A DNA stretch of 64,000 bases from Chloroflexota bacterium. Its GTDB lineage: Bacteria; Chloroflexota; Dehalococcoidia; JAUQQI01. The position numbers and the translations under genes are program-made. Positions 697-64,000 of the stretch are shown here, piece by piece. The stretch spans positions 36,064 through 100,063 of the forward strand of contig PSKS01000004.1 of the NCBI GenBank assembly GCA_040289115.1. Reading direction: 5' to 3'. Within the stretch, counting starts at the first letter, position 1. Every line of letters begins with the position of its first letter. The notes under the pieces are model-generated. The model saw only the letters and a program-made list of their open reading frames with translations. It was not told where the DNA came from and did no database searches.

Positions 697-703
697 CCGG
701 CCT

Positions 704-2024: not shown

Positions 2025-2039
2025 CTCCCACTACCTTCC

Positions 2040-2430: not shown

Positions 2431-2502
2431 GGCGACACCTCCTCAACACCTTCAACCCAAGAATAGCCCAACTTCAGAGGGGGTTATAATTGGGTCGGGA
2501 AG

Positions 2503-3581: not shown

Positions 3582-3595
3582 GCCGGGGGGCGGCC

Positions 3596-4060: not shown

Positions 4061-4066
4061 GCGGGC

Positions 4067-4582: not shown

Positions 4583-4736
4583 TTGAGTTTACCCTAAAGG
4601 ACTTGGTCGCGGGTTGGCTCAGCAGTGCCCATAAGCGTGGCTTGCTGTCGGCTGAGCGGCACACTTTTCACCAAGAAGGCGGACGATGGCCGAAAAGGAT
4701 TCCCTGGAGCTGGCCTATGAGGTGGCGGACCGCTAG

Positions 4737-6101: not shown

Positions 6102-6124
6102 AGAGACGGGCCCGGGCCGACCCG

Positions 6125-7989: not shown

Positions 7990-8052
7990 CCTTTGGGCCC
8001 ACGGCCCTGAGACCGAGCTAGACCCGGCCTGGGGGGTGGCAGCTTCCAAGCC

Positions 8053-10344
8053 CTAGGCCGGGCCGCTTTTCAGGGCCCGCCAGAGGCGCTCGGGGGTGAT
8101 GGGCAGTTCGGTAATGCGAACCCCGATGGCATCCCGGACGGCGTTGGCCACCGCCGCCAGGCCGGGAACGATGGGGGGCTCCCCAACTCCCCGGGCCCCG
8201 AAGGGCCCCGCCTCCGACGGCACCTCGACCAGTTCCACCTCGAAGGCGGGCACATCCAGCGCCCGGGGAAGAGCATACTCCAAGAACGTTGCAGTTATAA
8301 GCTCCCCCTGCTCGTCGTAAACGAGCTGTTCCATCAGAGCCCAGCCCAGGCCCTGGGTGGCTCCGCCGTGGACCTGGCCCTCAATGGTCAGGGGGTTAAT
8401 GGCCCGGCCCACATCCTGCACCGCCAGGAATCGGCCGGGCCTTACCAGGCCGGTGTCCGGGTCCACCTCGACCTCTACCACCTGGGCCGTAAAGCCCGGC
8501 GCCTGCCGGCCGATGCTCGACTCCCCTTCGGCGACGATGGGCGCAAGCCCCCGCTGGCCGGCAAAGGTCTTCTGGCCCAGCTCCTCGAGGCTTATCCCCC
8601 GTCCCGGCACTCCCCTCACCGAAACGAATCCATCCTTAAGCTCCAGGTCCTCGGGGTTGGCTTCCAGGTACTCGGCCGCCGCCCGCAGAATCTTCTCCCG
8701 GGCCGCCTGGGCCGCCCGGACCACCGCCGCCCCGACGGTGTAGGTTATCTTGCTGCCACCGCTGGCCCCGGCAAAGGGTCCGAGGGCAGTATCCCCCGAG
8801 ATTACCCGAACCTTCTCGGGGGGCAGCCCCAGGATCTCGGCCGCCAGCAGGATAAAGGCCGTGTCCGTGCCGTTGCCCAGGTCAATGGAGCCCACGTGAA
8901 GCTGGAGAGTGCCGTCCTCCTCCAGGCGACAGACGGCCGTGGCCGGGCCGAGGCCGCCAGGCCAGCCTCCCAGGGCTAGGCCGACCCCGCGTCCATCTCC
9001 CGGGCGCCGGTTCCGCCAGATGGGGTGGTCCCGGACGGCCGTGAGGCAGGCTGCCGCCCCAATCTCGGGCCACCGCCGATCAGCGGCCGCCGGGATGCGG
9101 TCCCCCTTGCCGGCCACGTTGCGGATCCGGAATTCTAGGGGGTCCAGCCCCAGCCGGCGGGCCAGCTCGTCTATCTGCGACTCGATGGCAAAGGTTGCCT
9201 GGGGCGCGCCGGGCGCCCGGTAGGCCCCGGTGGCCGCCTTATTGGTTAAAATCTCCCAGGTTTGAATCCGGAGGTTTGGCCAGCGGTAGTAGCCCCCGAG
9301 CAGCATTGCCATTATGCCGGAGAGGCCAGCCCGGTATATGCCCGAATCAATGTAAATGTCGGCATCCAGGGCCGTAAGGGTGCCGTCCTGCCGGACGCCG
9401 GTCTTGAGGCGGACGATGGTGCCGGGGGCCGGGGTTGTGGCCAGGAAGTCCTCGGTCCGGGTGAGGGCAATCAGCACCGGCCGCCGGACTGCCAGGGCGG
9501 CCGCAACTGCCAGGGGCTCTAAGGTACCGTACTTGGCCCCGAACCCGCCCCCGATTTTCATGGGCACAACCCGGACAGCCGTCTTCGGAAGCCCCGTAAT
9601 GTCAGCGATGAGGTCCCGAACGATGTACTGGCCCTGGGTGCTGGTGTAAACGGTTAGGCCCTCGCCAAGAGGATCCGGGACGGCCACCGCGGCGTGGGGC
9701 TCCAGGTAACTCTGGTGGACGAACTGTGTCCGGTACGTGGTCTCCAGGACCAGGTCGGCTTCGGCAAACCCGGCCTCGACGTCGCCCCAGCCGAAGACCG
9801 CCCGGGCGGCGAGGTTGCCCCCAACCGTCATCTGCTGGGCGGCGTTAATGGGCCCGGCGTGGACGTCTGCATCCTGGCGCTTTTCGCCCGGAACGCCCCC
9901 GGGCCAGACCAGGGCCTCCCGGTCGGTAAGGGCGGCGAGGGGGTCGACCACCGGCCTGAGGGGCTCGTACTCGACCTCAACGGCGTCGGCCCCATCCCGG
10001 GCCGCCAGCTCGTTTTCGGCCAGAACCAGCGCTACCGGCTGGCCCCGGAAAATTACCCGGTCCCGGGCCAGGATCAGGCGGGAGCGGGTGGTCGGCTCCG
10101 GCTGGATGGGCAAATCGACGCCCGTAAGGACGGCCACAACCCCAGGCACCCGCCGGGCCCGGTCGGTGCGGACCGCCCGGATGCGGGCATGGGCGTACGG
10201 GCTGAGCACCGGTCGGCCGAAGAGCATACCCGGCAGACGGAGATCTGCCGGATACCGGGCCGCGCCGGTGACCTTCTCCTTCCCGTCAACCAGCGGGATC
10301 CTTCGGCCGATGTACGTGGTCGTGGGTGCGAGCCTGGAAGTCAT
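8053..10344 (-). CDS. Xanthine dehydrogenase/aldehyde oxidase family molybdopterin-binding subunit (CoxL/XdhA-like)
   Basis: 763 aa. N-terminal Ald_Xan_dh_C-like region (YIGRRIPLVDGKEKVTGAARYPADL) and C-terminal Mo-cofactor binding regions (GGGFGAKY-like). Confidence 0.85.
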   Translation of the reverse strand: MTSRLAPTTTYIGRRIPLVDGKEKVTGAARYPADLRLPGMLFGRPVLSPYAHARIRAVRTDRARRVPGVVAVLTGVDLPIQPEPTTRSRLILARDRVIFRGQPVALVLAENELAARDGADAVEVEYEPLRPVVDPLAALTDREALVWPGGVPGEKRQDADVHAGPINAAQQMTVGGNLAARAVFGWGDVEAGFAEADLVLETTYRTQFVHQSYLEPHAAVAVPDPLGEGLTVYTSTQGQYIVRDLIADITGLPKTAVRVVPMKIGGGFGAKYGTLEPLAVAAALAVRRPVLIALTRTEDFLATTPAPGTIVRLKTGVRQDGTLTALDADIYIDSGIYRAGLSGIMAMLLGGYYRWPNLRIQTWEILTNKAATGAYRAPGAPQATFAIESQIDELARRLGLDPLEFRIRNVAGKGDRIPAAADRRWPEIGAAACLTAVRDHPIWRNRRPGDGRGVGLALGGWPGGLGPATAVCRLEEDGTLQLHVGSIDLGNGTDTAFILLAAEILGLPPEKVRVISGDTALGPFAGASGGSKITYTVGAAVVRAAQAAREKILRAAAEYLEANPEDLELKDGFVSVRGVPGRGISLEELGQKTFAGQRGLAPIVAEGESSIGRQAPGFTAQVVEVEVDPDTGLVRPGRFLAVQDVGRAINPLTIEGQVHGGATQGLGWALMEQLVYDEQGELITATFLEYALPRALDVPAFEVELVEVPSEAGPFGARGVGEPPIVPGLAAVANAVRDAIGVRITELPITPERLWRALKSGPA

Positions 10345-10477
10345 GCCCCAAACCTCTCCAGTCCAGGTTTTGCAGAAAAGCCCAACCGGGAATATCCCCC
10401 GGTTACTTAAAGCCTACGATGACCTGCCGCGCCCGTCAAGCCGAGACCAATGTGCCGCCCGGTTTAAAATATCTGGT

Positions 10478-13324
10478 GTGCTGACAGTAAGGCCGACTGC
10501 AAAGCAGGGTTATGGTCCGCCGGAAGAGCAGGTTAATAAGAGCCACCAGGTCGGCTGGTGCTTACTGGGCGTAGCTCTGGTAGCCCTGGCCTTCGGCCTC
10601 CGGGTCTACGAGCTGGCAACCAAAAGCATCTGGCTGGACGAGGCCTTAAGCTTCCACCGGGCGGCCAGCTTCGACCAGGCCATATCGGGCCTCATCGTAA
10701 CCGGCGGGGTCCCCAGCCGGGATACCCAGCCGCCCCTCTACTTCGTCCTCCTCTACGGTTTTCTTCGGCTGGCCGGGGATTCGGACTTTGCGGCCAAGTT
10801 TCTTTCGGCCTTCTTTTCGGTCCTAACCGTTCCGGTGCTGGCGGCAACCGGCCGAAGGCTCGGGGGCAGCCGGGTCGGGCTTCTAGCCGCCCTCTTAGCC
10901 GCTCCCTCGCCCCTCTACGTCTGGTACGCCCAGGAAGTCCGAATGTATACCCTGCTGGTCTTCTTTTCGGCCCTGGCCTTTTACCTTGGCCTCAGGTCGG
11001 CCGATGGGCTGCTCCGGGGTGCCTACCGGTCGGGGATGGCCTGGGCGGGGGCTGCTTTTCTGGCCGCCAGCCTGGGAGTTCTCACCCAGTATCTGGCCGT
11101 TTTTGTGGTTCCGGCCCTGGGGTTCGGCCTGGTGGCAGCCCTCGCCCGACGAAGGCGTACCCTCATCCTGGGCGGAAGCGCCTTTCTGGCCCTAGCCGGT
11201 CCCCCCCTCCTGGTGGAGGTCCTCTGGGGCCGGCTGATCACCGGGCCCACGCCCCAGTTCCGGGAAGTTTCTCCGCCTGTAATCTTGTGGGACCTCCTTG
11301 GCCGAGCGGCCGCCGGCCTTGCCCTGGAGGGACCCCTTCTGGACGGGCTAGCCGCGGTCCTACTGGGACTGATGCTTGGGGGGCTCCTTAAAGGCCCGGA
11401 GACGCCGGGACGCTGGTGGTTGGCAGGACTGGTGCTCCTCCCGGCGGCGGCCGTTGCCTTAGTGGGAGCCCAGCGGCCGGTGATCTCCAACGTCCGGCAC
11501 CTGATCTTCGCCACACCTGGCCTCTACTTGGCCGTCGCCCTCGGCCTCGAGGCCCTACGCCGCCGCTTCCCGGCAACGGCCCCCGTCCTGCTCGGCATCC
11601 TGGCCGCCGGGGCCGCACTTGGCCTTATCCGTTACTTTGATCCAGCCCTTCAGAAGGACGATTTCCGGTCCCTGGTGGCGTATCTTCAGCAAAACGTCGG
11701 ACCAGAGGACCTGGTGCTCGTCCATGAGGCCACGGTTCTGCACGTTTTTGAGCACTATGACCGTGGCTTCCTGCGGGTGGAGGCTTTGCCCCCCTTCGGG
11801 GAAGCCGTCGGCAGCCGGCTTTCGGCCGACTTCGTAGCCCGGCTCGAGCGGCTAAAAACCACCCACCGTCGGGTCTGGTTTGTTTACTGGCCCCGCAGCA
11901 TCGCCGGCGACCCGGCGGGCCTTATCCCCGCTTGGCTGGACAGTAACCTGTTTGCCGTCTCGGACCGAACCTTTGCCGGCCGGGGAATGGGGGTGGCCGT
12001 CCGGGCCTATGTTGCCCGCCCGCCGACCGAAAGGATGGTTCCAGCCGAGGTTCATGTGGCCGATTTAAGGTCGGCCGATGGACTGAAAATCATGGGCTGG
12101 GAGGTTGCCTCGGCCCCGACCGCCGACGGCCGCGTCGAGCTAAGCTTTTATTTCAGGGCCGAAGGAAAATCCCTGCCCGATTACCGACTGATAGTCCGGT
12201 TGGTGGACGCCCAGGACCACCTCTGGGCTTACTTTGACGGCCGGCCCATCCCCACCTGGCCCACCGACCGGTGGCCCTTGGGCGAGGTCGTCCGGGCCGA
12301 CTTGCCCCTCAGGCTGGCGCCCGGAACTCCGGCGGGCACCTACCGGCTCGAGGTCGGCCTCGCCCCTGGGACGAACGGCGGCCCGGTTCCCCTTCTGGAC
12401 GCTGTCAAGAATCCGGCGGGTACGCTGGTGGGGCTGGGGGAGGTGACCCTCCCCGGTGCCCACCGCCACCGTCCCGACTTCGACCGGGCCGTTCCGGACA
12501 GCCTGGGCATCGGCTGCCGGTGCGGACTAAAACTCAGGGAACTGAGCCCGGCGTCCCGGAAAATCCTTGCCGGCCAGTTGCTTACGGTTCGCGGGTACTA
12601 CCAGCTTACCGGGCCCATTGAACCAGCAGCCTATCGGCTGGCCCTGGAGCTCCGCCGAGGGGATGAGGCGGTAGCCGCTGGGGTGTGGCCTTTGGGCCCC
12701 ATCTCCCCTGCCGGCCCCAGGCCCACGGTTGGGGACTGGCTGGCTGGGGCCTATGACCTGCGGGTGCCCGTAACCGTCGGGCCGGGGGAATACCGGCTGG
12801 TCGGCCGGCTTCTCGGCCCCGAGGGCCGCCCGGAGACCTTGGCGGAAAGCTTCGGCCGGGTCCTGACCGAGGTGGACCTCGGCCCAGTTCAGGTCGTTAT
12901 CCCGGAACAGCGCTTCGACCCGCCTCACCCGGCCCAGCCGGCGGACGTCTATTTCGGCAACCTGCTCCACCTGCTCGGCTATACCCTGGAAACGGGTGGT
13001 GAAGACCGCCTGCGGGTAACCCTTTACTGGCGGGTGCTGGGAAGCTCGGAGGGTAAACTTAAGGTTTCGGTCCAGCTCTTTGCCGGCCTAAAGCTGGTGG
13101 CCCAGGACGATGCCGTTCCGGTCGGCTGGACCCGGCCGGCCTCCACCTGGGTTCCCGGAGAATACCTAACGGACCCCCATGAAGTTGGCCTGCCGCCGGG
13201 CGTGAAGCCGGGGGAGCTTACGATGCGGGTCATCCTTTACGACGAGGCCAGCGGCTGGCGGGTAAACGCCGCCCAGGCCGGTCAAATTAAGGACGCTGCC
13301 GAGTTCCCCATCGGGGTGCGGTAA
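10478..13324 (+). CDS. GT-C superfamily glycosyltransferase (ArnT/PMT-like, GT39/GT83 type) with three C-terminal ~115-aa repeat domains
   Basis: Multi-TM N-terminal region with WLDEALSFH in the first loop (conserved DE of the PMT/ArnT family). The long soluble C-terminus contains 3 internal repeats. The start is ambiguous: there is no canonical start codon in frame between 10481 and the first TM; GTG 10478 is the nearest, and upstream sequence has non-coding-like third-position composition. Confidence 0.7.
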   Translation: MLTVRPTAKQGYGPPEEQVNKSHQVGWCLLGVALVALAFGLRVYELATKSIWLDEALSFHRAASFDQAISGLIVTGGVPSRDTQPPLYFVLLYGFLRLAGDSDFAAKFLSAFFSVLTVPVLAATGRRLGGSRVGLLAALLAAPSPLYVWYAQEVRMYTLLVFFSALAFYLGLRSADGLLRGAYRSGMAWAGAAFLAASLGVLTQYLAVFVVPALGFGLVAALARRRRTLILGGSAFLALAGPPLLVEVLWGRLITGPTPQFREVSPPVILWDLLGRAAAGLALEGPLLDGLAAVLLGLMLGGLLKGPETPGRWWLAGLVLLPAAAVALVGAQRPVISNVRHLIFATPGLYLAVALGLEALRRRFPATAPVLLGILAAGAALGLIRYFDPALQKDDFRSLVAYLQQNVGPEDLVLVHEATVLHVFEHYDRGFLRVEALPPFGEAVGSRLSADFVARLERLKTTHRRVWFVYWPRSIAGDPAGLIPAWLDSNLFAVSDRTFAGRGMGVAVRAYVARPPTERMVPAEVHVADLRSADGLKIMGWEVASAPTADGRVELSFYFRAEGKSLPDYRLIVRLVDAQDHLWAYFDGRPIPTWPTDRWPLGEVVRADLPLRLAPGTPAGTYRLEVGLAPGTNGGPVPLLDAVKNPAGTLVGLGEVTLPGAHRHRPDFDRAVPDSLGIGCRCGLKLRELSPASRKILAGQLLTVRGYYQLTGPIEPAAYRLALELRRGDEAVAAGVWPLGPISPAGPRPTVGDWLAGAYDLRVPVTVGPGEYRLVGRLLGPEGRPETLAESFGRVLTEVDLGPVQVVIPEQRFDPPHPAQPADVYFGNLLHLLGYTLETGGEDRLRVTLYWRVLGSSEGKLKVSVQLFAGLKLVAQDDAVPVGWTRPASTWVPGEYLTDPHEVGLPPGVKPGELTMRVILYDEASGWRVNAAQAGQIKDAAEFPIGVR

Positions 13325-13335
13325 GGGGTGTGCCG

Positions 13336-15531
13336 ATGTCCCACCGAGACGTCCCCTGGCTGGCCACTTTAGCCTTCATCCTGCTGGGTACGGTTTACGG
13401 GGCGCTGGTTCCCCTCTATGAATCCCCGGACGAGCCCCAGCATATCGCCCTGGTGGCCCACCTGGCCGAGGCCTGGTCCTGGCCCCGGCAACAGCCGGGA
13501 ATGGTTACCCCCTGGCTTCAGGAGGCAAGCCAGCCGCCCCTCTACTACGGGCTCCTGGCTGGGCTCACCCGCTTATTTGGGTGGCCCACCGACGACCTGG
13601 AGAAAACCTTCCGGCCGAACCCCTTTGCCCGGCCCGGCGACCTTTCGGCCGAGGCCAACAAGAACGTTGCCCTCCACGGACCTCGGGAAAGCTTTCCCTG
13701 GTCGGGGCCGGTCCTGACGGTCCACCTCTGGCGGGAGGTATCCCTCCTGCTGGCGGCCGCCACCATCCCCGCCCTCTACGGTTTGGGCCGTACCCTCTTT
13801 CCGCACCGGCCAACTTGGGCACTAGGGGCAGTCCTGCTGGCCGTGTTCAACCCGGCCTTTGTCTTCAACATGGCCCGGGTGAGCAACGACGCCCTCGTAG
13901 TTCCCCTGGCTACCTGGGGCCTCTGGATTCTGGCCCGGTTAGGGTCCCGGAAGGACCCGGCCTGGGGCCTCGCCGCGGCTGCCGGCATCCTGGCGGGCCT
14001 AGCCGGCCTGGCCAAGCTGAGCGGCCTGGTCCTGCTGCCCGCGGCCGCCCTGGTGGTACTGATTCGGGCCATCCACTACCGCCGGTCACCGCAGGAGGCC
14101 CTCCTGGAGGGAATTTGTTTGCTCGCCCCGGTCGCCTTGGTCTGCGGCTGGTGGTTCTGGCAGAACTTTAGCTTTTACGGCGACCCAACGGGCCTTAACG
14201 TTATGGTCGAGGTGGCCGGACCCCGCCGGGAAAGCTCGGGGCTTTGGGTCGAACTCCGGGGAACGGTTTGGTCCTACTGGGCCCTATTCGGCTGGATGAA
14301 TCTGGGGCCCGAGCCCGCCGTTTTGCATCTGCTGGAAGTTGCCACGTTCCTGGGCCTGGGGGCGGCCGCGGTTTTCACAATCCGAAGGTCCAGTCGGGCC
14401 GACCCTGGGCTTTTCGGCGGCCTCAGCCTGCTCTGGGTCTATGTGGGCCTGTTGGTTGCCGCCTTCATCCGGTGGACCAGCCTTACACCCGCCTCAGACG
14501 GCCGGCTCCTTTACCCGGCGGTGGGGCCTGTGGCCCTTCTGCTGTTTATCGGCTGGGAGGCCTTTACCGGCCGCTGGCTCCTGACCCGGCCCATCCCCTG
14601 GCTGCTGGTTGCTGGGCTGGGTCTGCTGACCGTGACAGCCCCCTTTAGGTACATCCTTCCGGCCTACGCTGGTCCCGAACCCACTGAGACGGTGCCCGCC
14701 GGTGCCAGGCCGGTGAACGCCACCTTCGGGAATCACCTTCGGCTCATCGCCTACGAGCCAGGCGCGGCCGGTCCGGGCGAGTCCCTGCGGCTTACCCTTT
14801 ACTGGGAGTGCCTGACGCCCACGGCCGAGCCCTGGGCCCTCTTCTTCCACCAGGTTGGGGATGCCGGCGGGGCGGCCGTGCCCAACCTGGATACCTTCCC
14901 CGGCCGGGGCCTGATGTCCACTACCGACTGCCGGCCCGGGTATCGTTTTGCCGACCGCTACGCCTTTCGCATCACTGGGGTCCCGGAGGGAACGGTTGTG
15001 GTCAGGCTGCGGGTTGGGCTTCGGGTTCCGCCGGTTGGGGGCGAGGCCGTGCCCGTTACCGGGCCAGCGGGCAGGCCCCTTGAGGCCCTCGTTATCGAGG
15101 CCGGTAAGGTTCGGGGGTGGGGCGGGGCGGGGGGAACCACCCAGGGCCCGGCCCTTGGGCCCCTCCGGCTGAAAGACTTCGACCTTCCGAAAGCCGCCCG
15201 GGCGGGGGAAACGCTGCCGGTCAGAACCGTCTGGGAGGTTGCCGGGCCGACTGCCGACGACTGGCGGTTCTTCGTCCATCTGGGGGACCCGACCAGGCCG
15301 CCCCTGGCCCAGGCCGACGGGCCCCCGGCCAATGGGAACTTCCCGGCCCAGTGGTGGGAGGTCGGGGATATCCTGGTGGACCGGCGGGAAATCCCCCTGC
15401 CCCCAGATTTACCCCAGGGCCGATACCCGGTCACCGTCGGCCTTTACCGGCCCGACGGCGTGCGGGCAACCGCCGAGGGCTCCGGCTTATCTTACATTCG
15501 CCTCGGAGAGGTCGAAGTTGCGGGTTATTGA
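13336..15531 (+). CDS. GT-C-like polytopic membrane glycosyltransferase paralog with two C-terminal repeat domains
   Basis: About 440 aa polytopic membrane region (YESPDEPQH loop motif). The C-terminal soluble region has 2 copies of the same repeat family as the upstream gene (LRLTLYW..., ..RYPVTVGLYRPDG). Only 11 nt separate it from the upstream gene, with an AAGGGG RBS. Confidence 0.65.
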   Translation: MSHRDVPWLATLAFILLGTVYGALVPLYESPDEPQHIALVAHLAEAWSWPRQQPGMVTPWLQEASQPPLYYGLLAGLTRLFGWPTDDLEKTFRPNPFARPGDLSAEANKNVALHGPRESFPWSGPVLTVHLWREVSLLLAAATIPALYGLGRTLFPHRPTWALGAVLLAVFNPAFVFNMARVSNDALVVPLATWGLWILARLGSRKDPAWGLAAAAGILAGLAGLAKLSGLVLLPAAALVVLIRAIHYRRSPQEALLEGICLLAPVALVCGWWFWQNFSFYGDPTGLNVMVEVAGPRRESSGLWVELRGTVWSYWALFGWMNLGPEPAVLHLLEVATFLGLGAAAVFTIRRSSRADPGLFGGLSLLWVYVGLLVAAFIRWTSLTPASDGRLLYPAVGPVALLLFIGWEAFTGRWLLTRPIPWLLVAGLGLLTVTAPFRYILPAYAGPEPTETVPAGARPVNATFGNHLRLIAYEPGAAGPGESLRLTLYWECLTPTAEPWALFFHQVGDAGGAAVPNLDTFPGRGLMSTTDCRPGYRFADRYAFRITGVPEGTVVVRLRVGLRVPPVGGEAVPVTGPAGRPLEALVIEAGKVRGWGGAGGTTQGPALGPLRLKDFDLPKAARAGETLPVRTVWEVAGPTADDWRFFVHLGDPTRPPLAQADGPPANGNFPAQWWEVGDILVDRREIPLPPDLPQGRYPVTVGLYRPDGVRATAEGSGLSYIRLGEVEVAGY

Positions 15532-15567
15532 CAGGGCCGGTCGGCAGTTGTAACCTCTAGGTACGGG

Positions 15568-17136
15568 ATGGTCTTATCGCAACCCCTTTACCGTCGCTGG
15601 CGCTCACAAACCTTCGCCGAGGTGGTCGGCCAGGACCACGTCACCCGGACCCTGCGCAACAGCGTCCGCTCGGGCCGGCTTCACCACGCCTACCTTTTTG
15701 CCGGACCCAGGGGCACCGGGAAGACTTCCACCGGTCGGATCCTGGCCAAGGCTGTGAACTGCCTGGAACTGAGCCCCCAGGGCGAGCCCTGCAACCGCTG
15801 CCGCATCTGCGTCGAGATGAACGAGGGCCGCTCCCTGGACCTCATCGAAATCGATGCCGCCAGCAACCGCAAGATCGAGCACATCCGGGACCTCCGGGAG
15901 GCCGTAAGGCTTGCCCCTGTTACGGCCCGCTACAAGGTCTACATTATCGATGAGGTCCACATGCTCACCAACGAGGCAGCCAATGCCCTCCTTAAAACCC
16001 TGGAAGAGCCGCCCCCGCAGGTTATCTTTGTCCTGGCCACCACCGAGCTCCATCGGGTTCCGGCCACCATCGCCTCCAGGTGCCAGCGGTTTCTCTTCCG
16101 CCGGATACCCCCGGCGGCAGCCCGGGCCCGGCTCGAGGCCATCTGCTGGGCCGAAGATATCCGGATAAGCCCTCAGACCCTGGACCTCATCATCAACCTA
16201 TCCGGGGGAAGCCTCCGGGATGCCGAAAACCTGCTGGACCAACTGGTGGCCCACTTTGGAACCGAGGTCGACCACGAAGCTGCCCGCGAGCTTCTGGGCC
16301 ACGTCGAGGACGCCCGGGCCTTGGAGCTCGTTCAGGCCCTCTTTGCCGGCGACGTTCCCCAGGCCATCCGGCTAGTCAATGCCGTCCGGGAGGATGGCTA
16401 CGACCTGCGTCAGTTTAATCGGGAGGTGGTGGGGCATCTGCGGTCGATGCTCCTGCTGGCCTATGGCCTGGACGACGAGGTGGAGGCCGGCCCGGCCACT
16501 GTGGAGGTTCTGCGCCCCCTGGCGGGGACCGTCGAGCCGGCAACGCTGGCGGGGCTAATCAAGGCCTTTAATGCCGTCAACTTCGGGGCCGACCCCGGCT
16601 GGCCCCTGCCCTTGGAGCTGGCCATCGTTGAGGCCGGCCGGCTTTTTAAGGTTCCGGCTCGGGACGAAACCACCTCAGTTCCCGCCCCAGTCACCGTCCG
16701 CCCCGGCGACGGGCCCACTTCAGCGCTTGCGGAGACCGAACGCCCGGCGGAGTCGGTAAAGATGCCGGAGGCCCCCACTTTGCCGGCGGCTGACCTTCCG
16801 GCCGACTTTAAGGGCCGCCTCACCGAGGCCCTCCGAAGCCGGGGTGGGGAGGGCCGGAAGGTTGCGGGCCTACTGGACTGGTGCGAGGAGGTGGATGTTG
16901 ACGGCGACCGGCTGGTGTTTGTCTTTTCGAACCGGCTCTTCCGGGATAAGGCCGCAGACCCCGTCAACCGGCGGGTCCTGGACCAGGCGGTCCGTAAGCT
17001 CACCGGCCGCCGCTACGAGCTTGAATTCGACCTCCGGACCGAGGACCGAACCTCCAGGCTAGAACGGGCCAAGGCCGACCCGGTGGTCCGGTTCCTGGAG
17101 GAGGAGTTCGGCGGGGAAGTTCTGGACGTAAGATAA
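15568..17136 (+). CDS. dnaX: DNA polymerase III subunit gamma/tau
   Basis: AAA+ clamp loader motifs (LFAGPRGTGKTS, zinc module CNRCRIC, IIDEVHMLT). Confidence 0.9.
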   Translation: MVLSQPLYRRWRSQTFAEVVGQDHVTRTLRNSVRSGRLHHAYLFAGPRGTGKTSTGRILAKAVNCLELSPQGEPCNRCRICVEMNEGRSLDLIEIDAASNRKIEHIRDLREAVRLAPVTARYKVYIIDEVHMLTNEAANALLKTLEEPPPQVIFVLATTELHRVPATIASRCQRFLFRRIPPAAARARLEAICWAEDIRISPQTLDLIINLSGGSLRDAENLLDQLVAHFGTEVDHEAARELLGHVEDARALELVQALFAGDVPQAIRLVNAVREDGYDLRQFNREVVGHLRSMLLLAYGLDDEVEAGPATVEVLRPLAGTVEPATLAGLIKAFNAVNFGADPGWPLPLELAIVEAGRLFKVPARDETTSVPAPVTVRPGDGPTSALAETERPAESVKMPEAPTLPAADLPADFKGRLTEALRSRGGEGRKVAGLLDWCEEVDVDGDRLVFVFSNRLFRDKAADPVNRRVLDQAVRKLTGRRYELEFDLRTEDRTSRLERAKADPVVRFLEEEFGGEVLDVR

Positions 17137-17151
17137 GCGTGGGGGAAAGTT

Positions 17152-17475
17152 ATGTTTGACCCGAAGCTGTTTAAAAAGGCCCAGCAGGAAGCCCTAAAAC
17201 TTCAGGAGCGGCTCAAAAAGGCCCAGGAGCAGTTGGCCCAGGAGGAACTTGAGGCCACCGCCGGGGGCGGGGCGGTGCGGGTCGTGATAACCGGCGACCT
17301 CACGGTAAAATCTATACGGATAGACCCCGAGATCGTCGACCCGAACGACGTCGAGGGCCTGGAAGACCTGATTCTGGCCGCCGTAAACCAGGCCATCGAG
17401 AAGGCCCAGGCCCTGGCGGCGGAGCGCCTGGGGAGCGTAACGGGGAATTTTAAAATTCCGGGGCTGGGATTTTAA
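17152..17475 (+). CDS. ybaB: Nucleoid-associated protein YbaB/EbfC
   Basis: 107 aa YbaB-like protein (MFDPKLFKKAQQ..., VVITGDLTVKSIRIDPEIVDPNDVEGLEDLILAAVNQA). Confidence 0.9.
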   Translation: MFDPKLFKKAQQEALKLQERLKKAQEQLAQEELEATAGGGAVRVVITGDLTVKSIRIDPEIVDPNDVEGLEDLILAAVNQAIEKAQALAAERLGSVTGNFKIPGLGF

Positions 17476-18090
17476 GTGGACCTGAGTACTGTCCCCGTCG
17501 CCGAGCCGGTTAGCCGGCTCATTGCCGAGCTGGAAAAGCTGCCCGGTATCGGGCCCAAGACCGCCCAGCGGCTGACTTATTACATCCTCCGCCAGCCCGA
17601 AGTGGAGGTCCGGAGTCTGGCCCAGGCCCTCCTGGACGTGAAGACCCGGGTGCGGTTCTGCGCCGAGTGCTTCAACATCTCCGAAGACGACCTCTGCCCC
17701 ATCTGCCGCTCACCGGACCGGGACCGCGCGGTCATCTGCGTGATGGAGGAGCCCCTGCATGTCCTGGCCCTGGAGCGGACGGGCAAATACCGGGGGCTCT
17801 ACCACGTCCTCCACGGGGTGATCTCCCCCCTTAATGGTGTCCTGCCGGAAAACCTCAAGATCGCTGAGCTCATCGAGCGGGTTCAGCGGCACCCGGTTCG
17901 GGAGGTCATCCTGGCCACAAACCCCAACCTGGAAGGGGATACGACGGCAAGCTATATCTTCAAACTGCTTGCCCCCCTCGGCGTAAAGGTGAGCCGGCTG
18001 GCCCGGGGCCTGCCCTCCGGCGGCGAGCTCGACTACGCCGATGAACGAACAATGGTCGAGGCCCTCGACGGCCGCCGACCCCTCAATTGA
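17476..18090 (+). CDS. recR: Recombination protein RecR
   Basis: GTG start. HhH motif (LEKLPGIGPKTAQRL), C4 zinc finger (CAEC...CPIC) and a Toprim domain. Confidence 0.9.
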   Translation: MDLSTVPVAEPVSRLIAELEKLPGIGPKTAQRLTYYILRQPEVEVRSLAQALLDVKTRVRFCAECFNISEDDLCPICRSPDRDRAVICVMEEPLHVLALERTGKYRGLYHVLHGVISPLNGVLPENLKIAELIERVQRHPVREVILATNPNLEGDTTASYIFKLLAPLGVKVSRLARGLPSGGELDYADERTMVEALDGRRPLN

Positions 18091-18102
18091 GCCCCCGAAT
18101 CG

Positions 18103-18867: not shown

Positions 18868-18874
18868 GCCGGGG

Positions 18875-20008
18875 GTGGGAACGCCGTGGCGGGTTCTGAT
18901 TACCGGCGGGGCCGGCTTCATCGGTTCCCACCTGGTCGATGAGCTGGTGGCCGCCGGCTACGAGGTGACGGTCATCGACTCCCTCGAGCCCCAGGTCCAC
19001 GGCCCCAACCGCACCCCACCACCCTACCTTAACCCGAAGGCCCGCACCGTCTGGGCCGACCTGGCCACCGAGCCGGATGTGCTGGACCGGCTGCTGCCCG
19101 AAGTCGACGCCGTGGTGCACCTGGCCGCCCTGGTGGGGGTCGGCCAGTCCATGTATGAGGTCGCCCGCTACGTCCGGACCAACACCCTGGGCACGGCGAC
19201 CCTCTTGGAAAAGCTTATCCGGCAGCGGGACCGGATAAGGAAACTGGTGGTGGCCAGCTCCATGGCCGTCTACGGTGAGGGAGCTTACGTCTGTCCTAAC
19301 TGCGGCCCGGTCTATCCCCCGGGCCGGACGGAGGCCCAGCTGGCGGCCCGGGACTGGGAGATTCGATGTCCCGCCTGCGCCGCCGTTCTGGAACCCCGGC
19401 CCACCCCCGAAGACAAGCCGTTAAGGCCCGAGTCGGTCTACGCCGTAACCAAGCGGGACCAGGAGGAGCTGGCCCTTACGGTAGGCCGGGCCTACCGGAT
19501 ACCCACCGTCGCCTTGAGGTTTTTCAACGTTTACGGGCCCCGCCAAGCCCTAAGCAACCCCTACACGGGGGTTGCGGCCATCTTCTCGGCCCGGCTGCTT
19601 AACGGTCGCGCCCCGGTCGTCTACGAGGACGGCCGCCAGACTCGGGATTTCGTCCACGTTCGGGACGTGGTCAGGGCCTGCCGGCTTGCCCTAGAAAGGG
19701 ACGGGGCCGATTACGAGGCCGTAAACGTGGGGACCGGCAGGCCTATTTCGGTCCTGGAGGTGGCCTCGACCTTGGCCTGGGCCCTGGGCCGGCCGCTGAA
19801 GGCCGAAATCACCGGCCGCTACCGGGCAGGGGATATCCGCCACTGCTACGCCGACATTACCAGGGCCCGCCGGCTTCTCGGTTACGAGCCCGAGGTGACC
19901 TTCGAGGCGGGGATGGCTGAGCTTGCCGCCTGGGTCACCACCCAGGCGGCCCAGGACCGCTGGGCCGAGGCGGCCGCCGAACTGGAACGTCAGGGGCTCA
20001 CCCGATGA
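18875..20008 (+). CDS. NAD-dependent epimerase/dehydratase (extended SDR) with an inserted Cys4 zinc-ribbon-like segment
   Basis: GTG start. Rossmann motif GGAGFIGSHL. Insertion CPNCGPVYPPGRTEAQLAARDWEIRCPACAAV between core SDR segments. YxxxK region present. Confidence 0.8.
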   Translation: MGTPWRVLITGGAGFIGSHLVDELVAAGYEVTVIDSLEPQVHGPNRTPPPYLNPKARTVWADLATEPDVLDRLLPEVDAVVHLAALVGVGQSMYEVARYVRTNTLGTATLLEKLIRQRDRIRKLVVASSMAVYGEGAYVCPNCGPVYPPGRTEAQLAARDWEIRCPACAAVLEPRPTPEDKPLRPESVYAVTKRDQEELALTVGRAYRIPTVALRFFNVYGPRQALSNPYTGVAAIFSARLLNGRAPVVYEDGRQTRDFVHVRDVVRACRLALERDGADYEAVNVGTGRPISVLEVASTLAWALGRPLKAEITGRYRAGDIRHCYADITRARRLLGYEPEVTFEAGMAELAAWVTTQAAQDRWAEAAAELERQGLTR

Positions 20009-20685: not shown

Positions 20686-20691
20686 AGGGCC

Positions 20692-21675: not shown

Positions 21676-22686
21676 TTAACTGGACCGGCGGACCGTGAAC
21701 TCGATGAGGGCTGCCAACATCTGCCGGGCGGGCTGGTCGGGCAAGTTTTCTAGGGCGGCCCTGGCGGCCCCGGCGAACTGCTCGGCCACGACGTAGGCGT
21801 CGGCCAGCACACCGCTGGACCGGATCTCTTCGGCCAGCTCGTCTACCTCGGCCGGAGTCACCCGACCCTCGAGGATCCGACGCAGGCGTCCATCTTCAGG
21901 GTACCGTTCCAGGTAAAGAATCGTGGGCAGGGTAAGGACCCCCTGAAGCAGGTCATTACGGGCGGGCTTACCCAGCTGTTCCTGGCTGGCGCTAAAGTCA
22001 AGGATATCATCCACCACCTGAAAAGCCATACCTAGATTGTAGCCGTAGCCACGCAGGGCGTCAAGAGCCGGTTCCGGTGCCCCGCTTAGGATACCCCCGG
22101 ATTCGGCCGCCGTCGCAAAAAGGGCGGCCGTCTTGCCCTCCACCCATTTAAAATAATCCTCCCGGCGGCTGTTAGGGTCCTTGGCACCGAAGGCCTGGCG
22201 CAGCTCCCCGGTGCAGATCACCATCAGCGTCCGGGCAAAGAGGGTCATGGCCCGCAGGTTTTCGGTGCTGGCCACGAGGTCGGCTGACTTAGCAAAAAGG
22301 TAATCCCCAACCAGCACGGCAGTTCCGGCGCTGGCCACGCTGTTTATCGTCGGCTGGCCCCGCCGAACCTCGGAGCGGTCCAGGACGTCGTCGTGGACCA
22401 GGGTGGCGGTGTGCAGAAGCTCCATCGCCGCGGCCATGGGTACCAGCTTGTCCAGCCGGTAGTCGAAAAGCTTTCCGGCTAGCAGGGTAATGCTGGGCCG
22501 GATCCGCTTGCCGCCGGGCCTCAGCACGTGGGCTACCAGCTGGGCCAGCAGGGGATAGTCCACCCGGGCCACCGCCTTGAGGGTTTCCTCCACCAGGGCG
22601 AGGCCATCGGCAACGGCGGCGTGGATCTCCTCAAGTCCAGTCAATTTAAAGCGTCCCCCGGCAAACCCGAGCCAACGGCAACCCAT
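21676..22686 (-). CDS. Polyprenyl diphosphate synthase (hepta/octaprenyl type, trans-IPPS)
   Basis: FARM motif LVHDDVLDRSEVRRG and second Asp-rich motif QVVDDILD. Start uncertain (ATG 22686 or TTG 22647). Confidence 0.85.
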   Translation of the reverse strand: MGCRWLGFAGGRFKLTGLEEIHAAVADGLALVEETLKAVARVDYPLLAQLVAHVLRPGGKRIRPSITLLAGKLFDYRLDKLVPMAAAMELLHTATLVHDDVLDRSEVRRGQPTINSVASAGTAVLVGDYLFAKSADLVASTENLRAMTLFARTLMVICTGELRQAFGAKDPNSRREDYFKWVEGKTAALFATAAESGGILSGAPEPALDALRGYGYNLGMAFQVVDDILDFSASQEQLGKPARNDLLQGVLTLPTILYLERYPEDGRLRRILEGRVTPAEVDELAEEIRSSGVLADAYVVAEQFAGAARAALENLPDQPARQMLAALIEFTVRRSS

Positions 22687-23465
22687 TTCAGGGCGAAAAG
22701 TTGGCAAGCGTTGGCCGTCGTCTGCGCTATTACCGCCTCCACCGGGGCCGACCAAAGCCCGGCCAGAACCCTGACCACCTCCACCAGGTAGGCCGGTTCG
22801 TTCCGCCGGCCCCGCCAGGGCTGGGGCGGAAGGTAGGGGGCGTCGGTCTCCACCACCACCCGGTCTCGGGGAAGCCGGGCCACTACCTCCCGGAGCCGGT
22901 CGTTCTTCGGGTAGGTGATGGCCCCGCCGACGCCGAAGTAAAACCCAAGGGTCCCCGCCTCCTCAGCCGCGGCCAGGTCGCCACTGAAGGCGTGGAACAC
23001 CCCCCGCAGGCGCGGCCCCAGCCGCCGGCGCTGCGCCCGGAGCAGCTCCAGCATCCGGGGCCAGGCCTCCCGGGTGTGGACCACCACCGGCAAGTCCACC
23101 TCCACCGCCAGCTCCAGCTGGGCGATAAACGCCTGCTCCTGGACCTCCGGCGGGAAGTACATCCGGTAAAAATCGAGCCCGACCTCCCCAATGGCGACCA
23201 CCTTCGGCCGGCCCGCCAGGTCGGCAAGGGCAGCCAGGGCGCCGGCGTCCAGCCGGCCGGCACTGCCGGGGTGGAAGCCTACGGCCGCGAAAACCCCGGG
23301 CTCGGTTGCCGCAATCTCCAGGTTCTCCCGGGCGGTGTCCAGGTCCAGGGCCGCACTTACGAAGACGTTTACCCCCGCCTGGCGGGCGCGGGCAAGGACC
23401 GCCCCCAGGTCTTCCCGGAACTGTGGGTCGAAGAGGTGCAGGTGGGTGTCTGCCAGCGACTGCAT
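22641..23465 (-). CDS. TatD-family metal-dependent DNase/hydrolase
   Basis: N-terminal DTHLHL motif, TIM-barrel TatD signature residues (HTREA, ETDAPYL). Confidence 0.85.
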   Translation of the reverse strand: MQSLADTHLHLFDPQFREDLGAVLARARQAGVNVFVSAALDLDTARENLEIAATEPGVFAAVGFHPGSAGRLDAGALAALADLAGRPKVVAIGEVGLDFYRMYFPPEVQEQAFIAQLELAVEVDLPVVVHTREAWPRMLELLRAQRRRLGPRLRGVFHAFSGDLAAAEEAGTLGFYFGVGGAITYPKNDRLREVVARLPRDRVVVETDAPYLPPQPWRGRRNEPAYLVEVVRVLAGLWSAPVEAVIAQTTANACQLFALKWVAVGSGLPGDALN

Positions 23466-49800: not shown

Positions 49801-52404
<2,604 letters not shown>

Positions 52405-63000: not shown

Positions 63001-63022
63001 AGCGCTACCCTATCGGTATAAT
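62994..63022 (+). promoter_or_regulatory. Near-consensus sigma70 promoter (TGGACA-N17-TATAAT) upstream of the flippase-like gene
   Basis: -35 TGGACA at 62994-62999, 17-nt spacer, -10 TATAAT at 63017-63022. A GAAGGGGG RBS precedes ATG 63109. Confidence 0.4.
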
Positions 63023-63108
63023 GGCAACGACATGGGTCGGTTTGCAAGCCGCCATTTACCGGCAAAATTTTTTCGAAATATCCCAGCCTGAGGATTGGGG
63101 GAAGGGGG

Positions 63109-64000
63109 ATGGCCCCGGTCGGCCGGGTAAAGGCGGTCCTTAAGCTTACCCGGCGGCGGACGGCCTGGTGGAACTGGGCCGGCACTATCCTGGGCCTCGG
63201 CCTCCTAGGCCTGGTAGTTGCCCGCGCCGACCCGGCGGCGGTCTGGGCCGCCTGGCGGGAAGGAAACCCCGGCTGGCTGGCGGCCGGGGCCATCCTCTAC
63301 TTTCTCGCCCCCTGGCTCCGGGCCTGGCGCTGGCAGCTCCTCCTTGGGGGAATCGCCCGTTTGGGCCGGTGGGAGCTTTTCGGCCTCACCCTCACTGGCT
63401 ACGCCCTGAACAACCTGATTCCCGGGCGGGCCGGGGACCTGGCCCGCATCACCCTTTTGAGCCTCCGCCACGGCCTCCCCTGGCCCACCGTCGGGGCCAC
63501 CGCCCTGGCCGAACGGGTGCTGGACGGCCTGAGCCTGGTGAGCCTGTTGTTCCTGGGCCTGGGCCTTACGCGGTTTCCGGACTGGGGATTTTTAGCCGGG
63601 CTGATCGGGGCGGGGGTCTTCCTGGGGGCTTTGGCCCTGGCCTGGGCAACCTTAAAATTCGGGCCCGAAGGGCCCCAGGGCCTTCGGCGGGTTATCGGGG
63701 AGGTTCGGCGGGGCCTTTCGGGCCTGGGTCAACCCGGAGTTCTGGGGGCCTCGGCCCTGCTCACCCTGGCTAGCTGGGTTATCGAAGCGGGGGTCTTCCT
63801 CTGCGTCGGCCGGGCCCTTAGCCTCGGCTTAGGCCTGCCCGAGCATCTGGTGGTGGCCTCGGTGGGCAACCTGGCCTGGGCCGTGCCCCTGGCCCCCGGC
63901 GGGGCCGGCAGCTTCGACCTGGCGGTGCGGGAGGCGGCCGCCGCCCTGGGTACCGGGGCCGAAGCCGCCGCCTTCAGCCTACTGGTCCACCTGGTACTCT
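63109..64000 (+). CDS. Lysylphosphatidylglycerol-synthase-TM-region-like / flippase-like (UPF0104) membrane protein, 3' partial
   Basis: YALNNLIPGRAGDLARI is the hallmark motif of the UPF0104/MprF TM-domain family. The ORF has no stop within the window. Confidence 0.55.
   Translation, partial: MAPVGRVKAVLKLTRRRTAWWNWAGTILGLGLLGLVVARADPAAVWAAWREGNPGWLAAGAILYFLAPWLRAWRWQLLLGGIARLGRWELFGLTLTGYALNNLIPGRAGDLARITLLSLRHGLPWPTVGATALAERVLDGLSLVSLLFLGLGLTRFPDWGFLAGLIGAGVFLGALALAWATLKFGPEGPQGLRRVIGEVRRGLSGLGQPGVLGASALLTLASWVIEAGVFLCVGRALSLGLGLPEHLVVASVGNLAWAVPLAPGGAGSFDLAVREAAAALGTGAEAAAFSLLVHLVL

Follow-up and report, generated by a model that had tools for sequence, protein, structure and literature searches.

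Which reaction is carried out by the two large membrane proteins encoded side by side in this Chloroflexota locus, and on which acceptor? ORF analysis of the 64-kb stretch of DNA studied here (the window) places P1 (10478..13324) and P2 (13330..15531) as two adjacent genes on the + strand, with products of 948 and 733 aa, close to the sizes of about 950 and 730 aa given by the first-pass annotation. P1 is read in a single frame from a GTG at 10478 to the stop at 13322-13324, and its length is the same as that of a 97%-identical database protein (P0001), while a homologue at 62% identity has 944 aa. For P2, which ends at 15531, the candidate starts are the GTG at 13330 (733 aa) and an ATG at 13336 (731 aa), the latter version being 100% identical to NCBI C4315_06830 (P0043) from a Chloroflexota MAG. 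Homologues, above-threshold Pfam matches and confident structure models confirm both as real genes. Between the genes lie 5 nt if P2 starts at the GTG and 11 nt if it starts at the ATG, and this gap holds a G-rich Shine-Dalgarno-like run (TAAGGGGTG). The pair had been described as translationally coupled; the closeness and the shared strand are borne out, but since the genes do not overlap, coupling is judged from the sequence to be plausible at most.

Profile searches, predicted structures and Foldseek comparison show P1 and P2 to be members of the GT-C superfamily by family and by modelled fold, as had been proposed. Both exceed the gathering threshold of Pfam PMT_2 (PF13231, 26.1 bits), P1 with 50 bits (5e-13) and P2 with 35 bits (2e-8). 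For Pfam PMT (PF02366, 22.7 bits), P1 lies above the threshold (37.5 bits, 2.4e-9) and P2 below it (14.1 bits). P1 is termed PMT_2/PMT-like and P2 is assigned to the PMT_2/DUF2142-like type. The AlphaFold models have a pLDDT of 84.5 for P1 and 94 for P2 (pTM 0.89). In Foldseek searches the top match of P1 is ArnT (5ezm; E 4e-8, TM-score 0.55), with an alignment of 592 columns that is longer than the membrane part of P1 by itself; P2 matches ArnT, ALG12/9, Pmt1/2/4, STT3, PglB and AftD. All matches to the membrane parts of the two proteins are GT-C enzymes (ArnT, Pmt1/2/4, ALG9/12, STT3/PglB/AglB and AftD). At the level of sequence, the family profiles of P1 and P2 reach the solved structures of Pmt4, Pmt2, Pmt1 and TMEM260, the P1 profile matching Pmt4 at 4e-7 and Pmt2 at 4e-6. 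Between the two membrane domains themselves, an 18-residue stretch alone can be aligned by pairwise BLASTP (E 0.024), from which it follows that P1 and P2 fall into separate GT-C subfamilies, with no close paralogy between them.

The P1 membrane domain (aa 1-386, 10478..11635, +) is predicted from AlphaFold helices to contain eleven transmembrane (TM) helices with the N-terminus inside. The topology of both proteins was modelled from such helices and judged by the positive-inside rule. In P1, K+R make up 18 of 64 residues in the inside loops and 10 of 108 in the outside loops; across the two proteins the shares range over 27-28% in the short inside loops and 7-9% outside. The 11-TM, N-in/C-out arrangement thus obeys the rule; in it, both the C-termini and the catalytic loop would face the exterior. 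The extracytoplasmic position suggested earlier is therefore favoured by the model.

The acidic motifs to which the first-pass annotation had drawn attention are present in the first outer loop of both proteins and are conserved in both families. In P1, the motif WLDEA (aa 52-56, 10631..10645, +) contains D54/E55 at nt 10637-10642; D54 shows no variation in alignment A1 and reaches at least 90% conservation in A2. The motif lines up with VVWDEAHFG in Pmt2 and VVFDEVHFG in Pmt1/Pmt4, which contain the catalytic loop-1 “DE”, and D54/E55 are accordingly a candidate catalytic acidic pair. In P2, the motif YESPDEPQH (aa 30-38 in the 733-aa numbering, 13417..13443, +) is a putative catalytic or metal-binding site, in which conservation across 47 homologues is 90% or more for E29, D32, E33 and H36 (731-aa numbering). 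Furthermore, P2 R133 aligns with the Arg of Pmt1 “LMRFFS”, and P1 has K106 at the matching column against Pmt4, Pmt2 and Pmt1, where most P1 homologues have Arg.

The soluble C-terminal part comprises 562 aa in P1 and about 288 aa in P2. In P1 it begins with an alpha/beta domain (from about aa 390 or 396 to 515, 11645..12022, +), absent from the earlier description, which lies between the membrane part and the repeats. It is delineated by AlphaFold secondary structure and resembles in Foldseek the soluble domain of ArnT-type enzymes, with no Pfam match found. Three beta-sandwich repeats follow, all on the + strand: repeat 1 (12038..12463, AlphaFold strands at aa 526-658), repeat 2 (12509..12907, strands at aa 684-807) and repeat 3 (12911..13321, strands at aa 820-944), the last matching the P2 repeats in BLASTP at E 1e-5 to 1e-7. 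P2 has an 11-TM core and two such domains, repeat 1 (14689..15129, +, strands at aa 458-592) and repeat 2 (15145..15528, +, strands at aa 610-729). Alignment A5, which includes repeats 1 and 2 of P1 and repeat 1 of P2, and pairwise BLASTP between P1 and P2 repeats (E 1e-4 to 1e-7) relate these copies, and the three in P1 and two in P2 are one beta-sandwich family. The C-terminal regions are thus truly repetitive, as first described. With regard to the designation as a paralogous pair, the kinship holds for the repeats and was overstated for the membrane domains.

Several observations bear on what the beta-sandwiches may bind. P2 repeat 2 matches RbmA, transglutaminase C-terminal barrels and the Wzt carbohydrate-binding domain 6o14 in Foldseek, and the lists for P1 and P2 also include many protein-binding Ig/FnIII domains. 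The five repeats have no Pfam match at E up to 10 save MalQ_N at 0.057, and the repeat profile has no significant match among PDB sequences. The same profile matches 25,615 cluster representatives; in a sample of 46 top matches the module is joined to PMT_2, PMT, PTPS_related, TMEM260-like, YfhO and STT3 cores, with weak matches to Wzt_C, NPCBM_assoc and DUF4832. Where the repeat resembles known families at all, the likeness is weak and leads to modules found in proteins that handle glycans (Wzt_C, NPCBM_assoc and ENGase Ig-like). Going by fold resemblance and sub-threshold HMM matches, the domains may bind carbohydrate.

The pair is surrounded by housekeeping genes, a MoCo dehydrogenase and then dnaX-ybaB-recR-recO, and the local context is therefore uninformative about the pathway. 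Profile searches of all ORFs in the window found no GT2, GT4, Wzy_C or donor synthase gene. A polyprenyl-phosphate-sugar synthase, for which a search nearby had been suggested, is thus not found in the window; such genes do flank the relatives. Three other features should be noted. An NAD-dependent sugar-nucleotide epimerase/dehydratase (18875..20008, +; Pfam Epimerase and GDP_Man_Dehyd) lies on the same strand as the pair, downstream of dnaX-ybaB-recR-recO. It matches the profile of the GMD-type neighbours of relatives at 1e-52, falls under every NCBIfam equivalog cut-off and is possibly linked in function to P1/P2. On the - strand, genes for a trans-polyprenyl diphosphate synthase (21676-22755) and TatD (22641-23465), identified by Pfam and profile match and together spanning 21676..23465, correspond to genes that also head GT-C clusters in distant relatives, as judged by cluster order. 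The sole flippase-like ORF in the window (LPG_synthase_TM, 63022..64000, +; profile match 8e-11) lies 48 kb from P1/P2 and runs past the window end; L087 shows the complete gene and the cluster behind it. Its family is called “flippase-like” in NCBIfam TIGR00374, and the gene may encode a flippase that handles a lipid-linked sugar.

In relatives, such genes are found in association with glycan-assembly genes. At least 532 genome matches were obtained, with full-length relatives at 29-46% identity, and among the matches listed all are from Chloroflexota, mostly Anaerolineae. At least two GT-C genes are present in 54 of 79 loci, with up to seven in succession. In 18 of the 79, the gene immediately upstream of a P2-like gene is P1-like, and the P1-P2 pair itself is conserved at 62% identity. 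P2-family genes mostly have no P1-like neighbour, their partners varying among P2-like, YfhO-like and P1-like genes. Recurrent neighbours include a GT2 of GtrB/ArnC/PgfS-like type that has two TM helices at its C-terminal end, as well as flippase-like LPG_synthase_TM, GT2, GT4, Wzy_C, YfhO, GDP-mannose 4,6-dehydratase and phosphomannomutase genes; GT2b adjoins GT-C genes in 10 of 79 loci and the flippase-like gene does so in 7. The GT2 neighbours are PgfS-like at 2e-57 and ArnC-like at 3e-72, which is below the cut-off of the ArnC model, and the YfhO-type neighbours show a weak likeness to PgfM1/PgfM2 of the S. mutans protein-glycosylation machinery. The recurrent array order is GDP-mannose pathway, TatD, polyprenyl synthase, GT2, GT4, several GT-C genes and Wzy_C. 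In databases the relatives are labelled “glycosyltransferase family 39 protein”, “ArnT family” or “4-amino-4-deoxy-L-arabinose transferase-like”, and no paper on these proteins came up in searches of the literature. P1 and P2 do not stand out within this family, which is very large, annotated and experimentally unstudied.

The likeliest role of P1 and P2 is to take a sugar carried on polyprenyl phosphate and add it to a glycan of the envelope beyond the membrane. A polyprenyl-phosphate (or diphosphate) sugar donor is suggested by family membership and by the GtrB/ArnC-like GT2 genes beside relatives. In the proposed mechanism, the catalytic acidic loop of each 11-helix core would lie at the outer face, where the core would accept a sugar from the flipped polyprenyl-phosphate-linked donor and then pass it to an acceptor outside the cytoplasm. 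The tandem beta-sandwiches, three in P1 and two in P2, would serve as carbohydrate-binding or spacer modules that hold or measure the envelope polysaccharide, comparable with the carbohydrate-binding modules (CBMs) of EmbC, AftD and GT136 ORF12; GT-C enzymes with acceptor-binding CBMs are on record in PMC11127046 and PMC3044687. P1 and P2 would then each catalyse a separate step of elongation or branching on one envelope glycan. Taken as a whole, the reading in which two different and probably co-expressed GT-C enzymes act at distinct steps on one envelope glycan of a monoderm-type bacterium is about as likely as not, the topology, the lipid-linked donor, the glycan acceptor and the cooperation of P1 with P2 being its inferred parts.

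The main rival to the envelope-glycan reading is protein O-glycosylation. Here one or both enzymes would use a polyprenyl-phosphate sugar to attach mannose or another hexose to Ser/Thr residues on proteins that are secreted, anchored in the membrane or part of the S-layer, and the beta-sandwiches would recognise the protein substrate. Parallels are PMTs, TMTC/TMEM260, streptococcal GtrB/PgtC2 and the Pgf systems. We regard it as the less likely of the two. PMTs being the closest solved families by sequence, this alternative is favoured by the best matches, Pmt4, Pmt2, Pmt1 and TMEM260, and by P1, which exceeds the Pfam PMT threshold and carries the loop-1 DE motif. However, no MIR or TPR acceptor-binding domain was found in P1 or P2; for MIR, this holds in Pfam scans at E up to 1, and the TM7-TM8 loop has 35-49 residues. 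Bacterial PMTs, to our knowledge, likewise lack MIR, and its absence therefore excludes the eukaryotic PMT type only, but we also know of no bacterial PMT with C-terminal repeats of this sort. Protein binding is frequent among Ig-like domains, which would suit a protein acceptor, whereas the glycan-handling resemblances of the repeat argue against one. The gene neighbours point in both directions: the PgfS-like GT2, the weakly PgfM1/PgfM2-like YfhO-type proteins and Wzy_C, a family that includes O-oligosaccharyltransferases, are consistent with protein glycosylation, but where as many as seven different GT-C genes stand in an array next to GDP-mannose-pathway, GT2 and GT4 genes, the assembly of a complex glycan is a better fit than a single-sugar modification of proteins. 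A bacterial precedent exists in GT-C enzymes that glycosylate Ser/Thr-rich protein regions (PMC12041528).

It is improbable that P1 and P2 form an obligate heterodimer like Pmt1-Pmt2 for one glycosylation step. PMT-family enzymes function as dimers (PMC12705809), and the adjacency of the genes on one strand, 5-11 nt apart, the maintenance of the pair at 62% identity and the 18 of 79 loci with the same order would fit such a partnership; nevertheless, most P2-family genes have no P1-like neighbour, partners are variable, and P1 and P2 each possess a complete catalytic motif and acceptor-side modules of their own. That the two are ArnT-like lipid modifiers, adding an aminoarabinose-type sugar to a membrane lipid or glycolipid head group and not to a polymer, is very unlikely: ArnT is the top structural match for P1 and among the best for P2, relatives bear ArnT-type names and their GT2 neighbours resemble ArnC, but the NCBIfam ArnT models have no match to P1 or P2 at E up to 1, Arn pathway genes (ArnC-like included) were not found in the window, large tandem beta-sandwiches, which ArnT lacks, would be superfluous for a lipid head-group acceptor, and lipid A is not expected in Chloroflexota, which as far as we know are generally held to be without it.

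Returning to transfer onto an envelope glycan, a broader and distinctly tentative proposal is that the pair is a trimmed-down part of a Chloroflexota-wide extracytoplasmic line, with up to seven GT-C enzymes and beta-sandwich “ruler” or acceptor modules, that builds an undescribed complex envelope polymer. If so, the polymer would correspond in function to mycobacterial arabinan or to wall polysaccharides rich in rhamnose, and the beta-sandwich domain would be a new GT-C-specific family of acceptor-binding modules. P1 and P2 alone are two more GT-C/PMT_2 members, already so labelled by public pipelines. The cell envelope of Chloroflexota is poorly characterised, especially in Anaerolineae, and the analysis brings out a large set of multi-GT-C arrays with recurrent gene order in this phylum, together with a very abundant C-terminal beta-sandwich domain common to them (more than 25,000 protein clusters, no curated family). 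Determination of the glycan product would fill a gap in the envelope biology of a major environmental phylum and add an acceptor-binding module to the GT-C toolkit.

Comparison with known systems places the pair as follows. ArnT (CAZy GT83; Cupriavidus metallidurans 5ezm/5f15) shares the GT-C core and probably also the catalytic Asp in the first outer loop and the polyprenyl-phosphate-sugar donor, and its likeness to P1 (E 4e-8, TM-score 0.55 over about 590 columns) includes the soluble alpha/beta domain. It differs in having 13 TM helices, no beta-sandwich repeats and lipid A as acceptor, and the similarity is structural only, no significant sequence match between ArnT and P1 or P2 having been found. 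By sequence profile (4e-7 to 1.4e-4), no solved relatives come closer than the PMTs (GT39 Pmt1/Pmt2/Pmt4) and TMEM260. They have in common with P1/P2 the N-in/C-out arrangement of 11 TM helices predicted here, the DE motif of loop 1 and the conserved Arg (P2 R133; K106 in P1). However, identity to the PMTs is very low, P2 stays under the PMT Pfam threshold, and P1/P2 have two or three C-terminal beta-sandwiches in place of a loop-5 MIR domain or TPR repeats. EmbA/B/C and AftD (GT53 and related) are likewise GT-C enzymes in multi-paralogue gene sets, and AftD is among the Foldseek matches. The mycobacterial enzymes use a decaprenyl-phosphate sugar outside the membrane, and their C-terminal lectin-like CBMs bind the growing polysaccharide (PMC3044687; PMC11127046). 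They differ in the type of soluble domain, phylum and envelope; AftD is a distant fold match, and no match of P1/P2 to Arabinose_trans Pfam models was found at E up to 1. Three-component systems (GtrA/GtrB/GtrC; CsbB/GtcA/YfhO; C. youngae PPPRS/MATE/GT136 ORF12) combine a GT2 lipid-phosphate-sugar synthase, a flippase and a GT-C enzyme, and in GT136 ORF12 a C-terminal Ig-like CBM binds the polysaccharide acceptor (PMC11127046). Relatives of P1/P2 similarly adjoin GtrB/ArnC-like GT2 and flippase-like genes, but the window has no synthase and its flippase-like gene is 48 kb off, and the arrays of relatives hold many GT-C genes and not one. With the labelled Chloroflexota GT39/ArnT-family proteins there is no difference: family and architecture are the same, and P1 and P2 belong among them.

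The P1 gene (10478..13324, plus strand) encodes 948 aa from a GTG start at 10478 to a stop at 13324, and is followed on the same strand by P2 (13330 or 13336..15531), which encodes 733 aa from GTG 13330 or 731 aa from ATG 13336. The start of P2 is more probably ATG 13336; a G-rich run lies upstream of it, and the NCBI protein C4315_06830 from a Chloroflexota MAG is 100% identical to the ATG version. For P1, the database protein P0001 displays 97% identity at equal length, and a homologue at 62% identity has 944 aa. Long spurious ORFs can arise at the G+C content of the window, approximately 65%; for both genes this explanation was ruled out by homologues, HMM matches and confident folds. The two adjacent genes of about 950 and 730 aa described in the first-pass annotation were recovered, together with both of its quoted motifs, WLDEA at aa 52-56 of P1 and YESPDEPQH at aa 30-38 of P2 (733-aa numbering). 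Adjacency therefore stands, while the translational coupling also claimed is possible and unproven, since the genes lie 5-11 nt apart with no overlap. Scanned for promoters and terminators, 10200-20800 showed no excess of terminator-like sites over shuffled sequence, and none of these sites was located between P2 and dnaX. The terminator scan listed, on the minus strand at 10383-10405, an inverted repeat with a 10-bp stem (TAACCGGGGGATATTCCCGGTTG); it lies in the 133 nt that separate P1 from the divergently oriented MoCo dehydrogenase gene, and could be an operator or attenuator.

The assignment of P1 and P2 as predicted GT-C enzymes is well supported by Pfam, family profiles, confident models and Foldseek. 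The Pfam family PMT_2 (PF13231) matched P1 at 5e-13 and P2 at 2e-8, and PMT (PF02366) matched P1 at 2.4e-9, all beyond the curated cut-offs; matches of P2 to PMT and DUF2142 were sub-threshold. In NCBIfam only far-sub-threshold matches were obtained for either protein (Agl23 and the LA_3751/2 family), so that no curated name applies. Single-sequence searches of the PDB gave Pmt4 at a non-significant E of 0.14 as the best match for P1 and nothing for P2. The PMTs were reached in the PDB by family profiles only, that of P1 matching Pmt4 (4e-7), Pmt2 (4e-6), Pmt1 (1e-4) and TMEM260 (1.4e-4), and that of P2 matching Pmt1 (1.5e-4). It can be observed in the profile alignments that W-x-D-E-A of the P1 family coincides with the catalytic "DE" in loop 1 of the PMTs, and that R133 of P2, invariant across the P2 family, pairs with the Arg conserved in Pmt1 ("LMRFFS"); the matching column of P1 against Pmt4, Pmt2 and Pmt1 holds K106, replaced by R in most P1 homologues. 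AlphaFold models, for which 42 homologues were used for P1 and 47 for P2, reached pLDDT 84.5 and pTM 0.68 for P1, and pLDDT 94 and pTM 0.89 for P2. When the membrane parts were compared with the PDB by Foldseek, GT-C enzymes alone were retrieved, the top match of P1 being ArnT 5ezm (E 4e-8, TM-score 0.55), with ALG9/ALG12, Pmt1/2, Pmt4, STT3A/B, PglB, AglB and AftD among further matches of the models. The GT-C assignment of the first-pass annotation thus held in both the HMM and the structure searches, and judged from sequence the two proteins belong to the GT-C superfamily and to Pfam PMT_2, and would work as other members do. Membership tests placed them outside ArnT proper, outside the Emb/Aft enzymes and outside the eukaryote-type PMTs with a MIR domain.

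When model helices were combined with hydropathy, an 11-TM layout with a cytoplasmic N-terminus suited both P1 and P2. Lys and Arg are abundant in the five short loops that this layout puts on the inner side, accounting for 18 of 64 inside residues against 10 of 108 outside in P1, and for 12 of 45 against 11 of 164 in P2. This enrichment in the 11-TM model points to a location outside the cytoplasm for the acidic first loop, the conserved outer loops 4 and 5 and the entire C-terminal region, as had been predicted for the C-termini. Domain limits and topology rest on secondary structure together with sequence. In P1, TM11 is followed by an alpha/beta domain at about aa 396-515, which is probably covered by the 592-column Foldseek alignment with ArnT and which matched no Pfam family in isolation, and then by three beta-sandwiches (aa 526-658, 684-807 and 820-944). 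In P2, two beta-sandwiches (aa 458-592 and 610-729) come directly after TM11, with no alpha/beta domain. The corresponding nucleotide spans of the repeats are 12038-13321 and 14689-15528.

The five predicted beta-sandwiches form one family. Repeats of P1 and P2 matched each other in pairwise BLASTP at E 1e-4 to 1e-7, and the alignment of all five copies has the common pattern P-T-x-x-W-x-x-G-E...D...L-P-P-G-x-P-x-G-x-Y-x-L-x-V-G-L. Searched copy by copy against Pfam at E up to 10, the repeats gave no match except MalQ_N at 0.057, and the profile built from them gave no significant sequence match in the PDB. Among 1.84 billion cluster representatives, the same profile matched 25,615 at E up to 1e-3 and 15,623 at E up to 1e-10, and the top matches are typically about 950-1,000 aa long and contain three copies. 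In a sample of 46 drawn from the best-scoring matches, the N-terminal parts are GT-C cores of several families: PMT_2 in 23 proteins, PMT in 10, PTPS_related in nine, TMEM260-like in five, and YfhO and STT3 in two each. The remaining matches were weak and fell on Ig-like modules from proteins that handle glycans (Wzt_C, NPCBM_assoc, DUF4832, ENGase Ig-like). Foldseek with the whole models likewise retrieved tandem FnIII/Ig proteins (RbmA, transglutaminase barrels) and the Wzt carbohydrate-binding domain 6o14. Named proteins in the sample come from Chloroflexota or Anaerolineae and are labelled "glycosyltransferase family 39" or "ArnT family". The repeat could become a curated domain family of its own.

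The pair is flanked by a divergent molybdopterin (MoCo) dehydrogenase gene on one side and by dnaX-ybaB-recR-recO on the other, beyond which lie an SDR sugar epimerase/dehydratase and a rhomboid protease, with LysR, a trans-polyprenyl diphosphate synthase and TatD on the opposite strand. The same gene order is conserved in the lineage carrying the 62%-identical P1, including the position of the epimerase downstream of recO. This epimerase (18875-20008, 377 aa) matches the Epimerase model in two stretches, has an insert of about 40 residues near aa 133-176 with a faint zinc-ribbon match, and falls below every NCBIfam equivalog threshold. The first-pass annotation had proposed a search for a nearby polyprenyl-phosphate sugar synthase; none was found within the window, either by Pfam analysis of 40 neighbouring ORFs or by a profile search of all ORFs of 80 aa or more. 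UppS (40985-41728) was rejected for this role as an ordinary housekeeping cis-prenyltransferase. Pfam and profile searches of the window also revealed no GT2, GT4, Wzy_C, YfhO or phosphomannomutase, and P1-P2 do not belong to a compact three-component system here. Elsewhere in the window, an RNase T/DEDD exonuclease with a fused C-terminal WYL domain (23512-24336, minus strand) adjoins TatD, and a 623-aa protein (25674-27545), with only a weak GH5 cellulase-like match (1.5e-6) and none in NCBIfam, may hydrolyse envelope glycans. Directly after ClpB (49801-52404) comes a bacterial eRF1-like protein (baeRF family 10/acVLRF1, 52435-53556), and a single-domain KaiC-like ATPase of 300 aa lies at 1119-2024 (minus strand). 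Outside the window, the related lineage carries a gyrase A intein with a LAGLIDADG endonuclease domain (locus L004, 1-465). From 63022 onward, past the window end, a flippase-like LPG_synthase_TM gene starts a second glycan-type cluster on one strand, corresponding to 1-9533 of locus L087 in reverse orientation. In longer contigs its order is the flippase-like gene, an FAD oxidoreductase, GidB, a 547-aa protein that matched no Pfam family, a 531-aa PMT_2 GT-C lacking C-terminal repeats, Wzy_C, an SDR epimerase and a second Wzy_C, and the cluster may supply partners for P1-P2.

At least 532 relatives of P2 were found; those among the matches listed are all Chloroflexota, including Anaerolineae, Thermoflexales, Ardenticatenaceae, Litorilinea and Roseilinea, the best match among them being Thermoflexus at 46% identity. 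The relatives scan used an 11-sequence alignment and one genome per species. Clustering of neighbours at 79 loci of relatives yielded 188 GT-C ORFs, with two or more in 54 loci and seven in a row in one. In 18 of the 79, a P2-like gene is immediately preceded by a P1-like one; an example is an Ardenticatenaceae locus (L046) in which genes for 942 and 753 aa are 3 nt apart. Many loci share a recurrent order: GDP-mannose 4,6-dehydratase (GMD, often two copies), phosphomannomutase (PMM), TatD and polyprenyl synthase, then soluble GT2, GT4, a P2-like GT-C, further GT-C genes (P1-, P2- or YfhO-like) and Wzy_C. Near P1-P2, the window retains only TatD, polyprenyl synthase and epimerase, and looks like a rearranged remnant of this neighbourhood. 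Anaerolineae loci (L011, L017, L018, L025, L047, L062 and others) carry four to seven GT-C genes in succession, often preceded by GMD-PMM-TatD-polyprenyl synthase-GT2-GT4 and ended by Wzy_C; at the head of the clusters, TatD and trans-polyprenyl synthase keep reappearing. At 10 of the 79 loci there is a 313-aa GT2 with a C-terminal pair of TM helices, the predicted polyprenyl-phosphate-sugar synthase of GtrB type, given its resemblance to ArnC (3e-72) and PgfS (2e-57). A "flippase-like" LPG_synthase_TM protein occurs at seven.

A mechanism is proposed from what is established for GT-C enzymes, from conservation of the catalytic loop, and from the occurrence of GtrB-like and flippase-like genes beside relatives: a sugar on polyprenyl phosphate would be flipped outward across the membrane, and P1 and P2 would each pass it to an extracytoplasmic acceptor. 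That the putative transfer of this lipid-linked sugar is to a polysaccharide has, as a whole statement, about an even chance. Such an acceptor is favoured by the multi-enzyme GT-C arrays, by the nucleotide-sugar and Leloir GT neighbours, and by repeats that resemble glycan-binding modules. The main rival, O-glycosylation of proteins by P1 and P2, is possible though on the unlikely side: it draws on a sequence relation closer to PMT and TMEM260, on PgfS/PgfM-like neighbours, and on neighbouring Wzy_C proteins, whose family includes O-oligosaccharyltransferases. For protein O-glycosylation, PMC12041528 is also relevant. An obligate heterodimer of P1 and P2 is ranked lower, as improbable, and ArnT-like lipid modification is very improbable.

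Public annotation already files the P1/P2 family as GT39 or ArnT-like, and a literature search on these Chloroflexota GT-C families found nothing relevant. Wider interest beyond the pair lies in the abundant, uncurated beta-sandwich module and in the multi-GT-C arrays of Anaerolineae, which, more tentatively, might build an undescribed Chloroflexota envelope polymer. Regarding known systems, the catalytic loop and C-terminus of the PMTs are arranged as in the topology model of P1 and P2. The polysaccharide acceptor is further favoured by the precedent of EmbC, AftD and the GT136 enzyme ORF12, on which CBMs bind the acceptor polymer (PMC3044687; PMC11127046).
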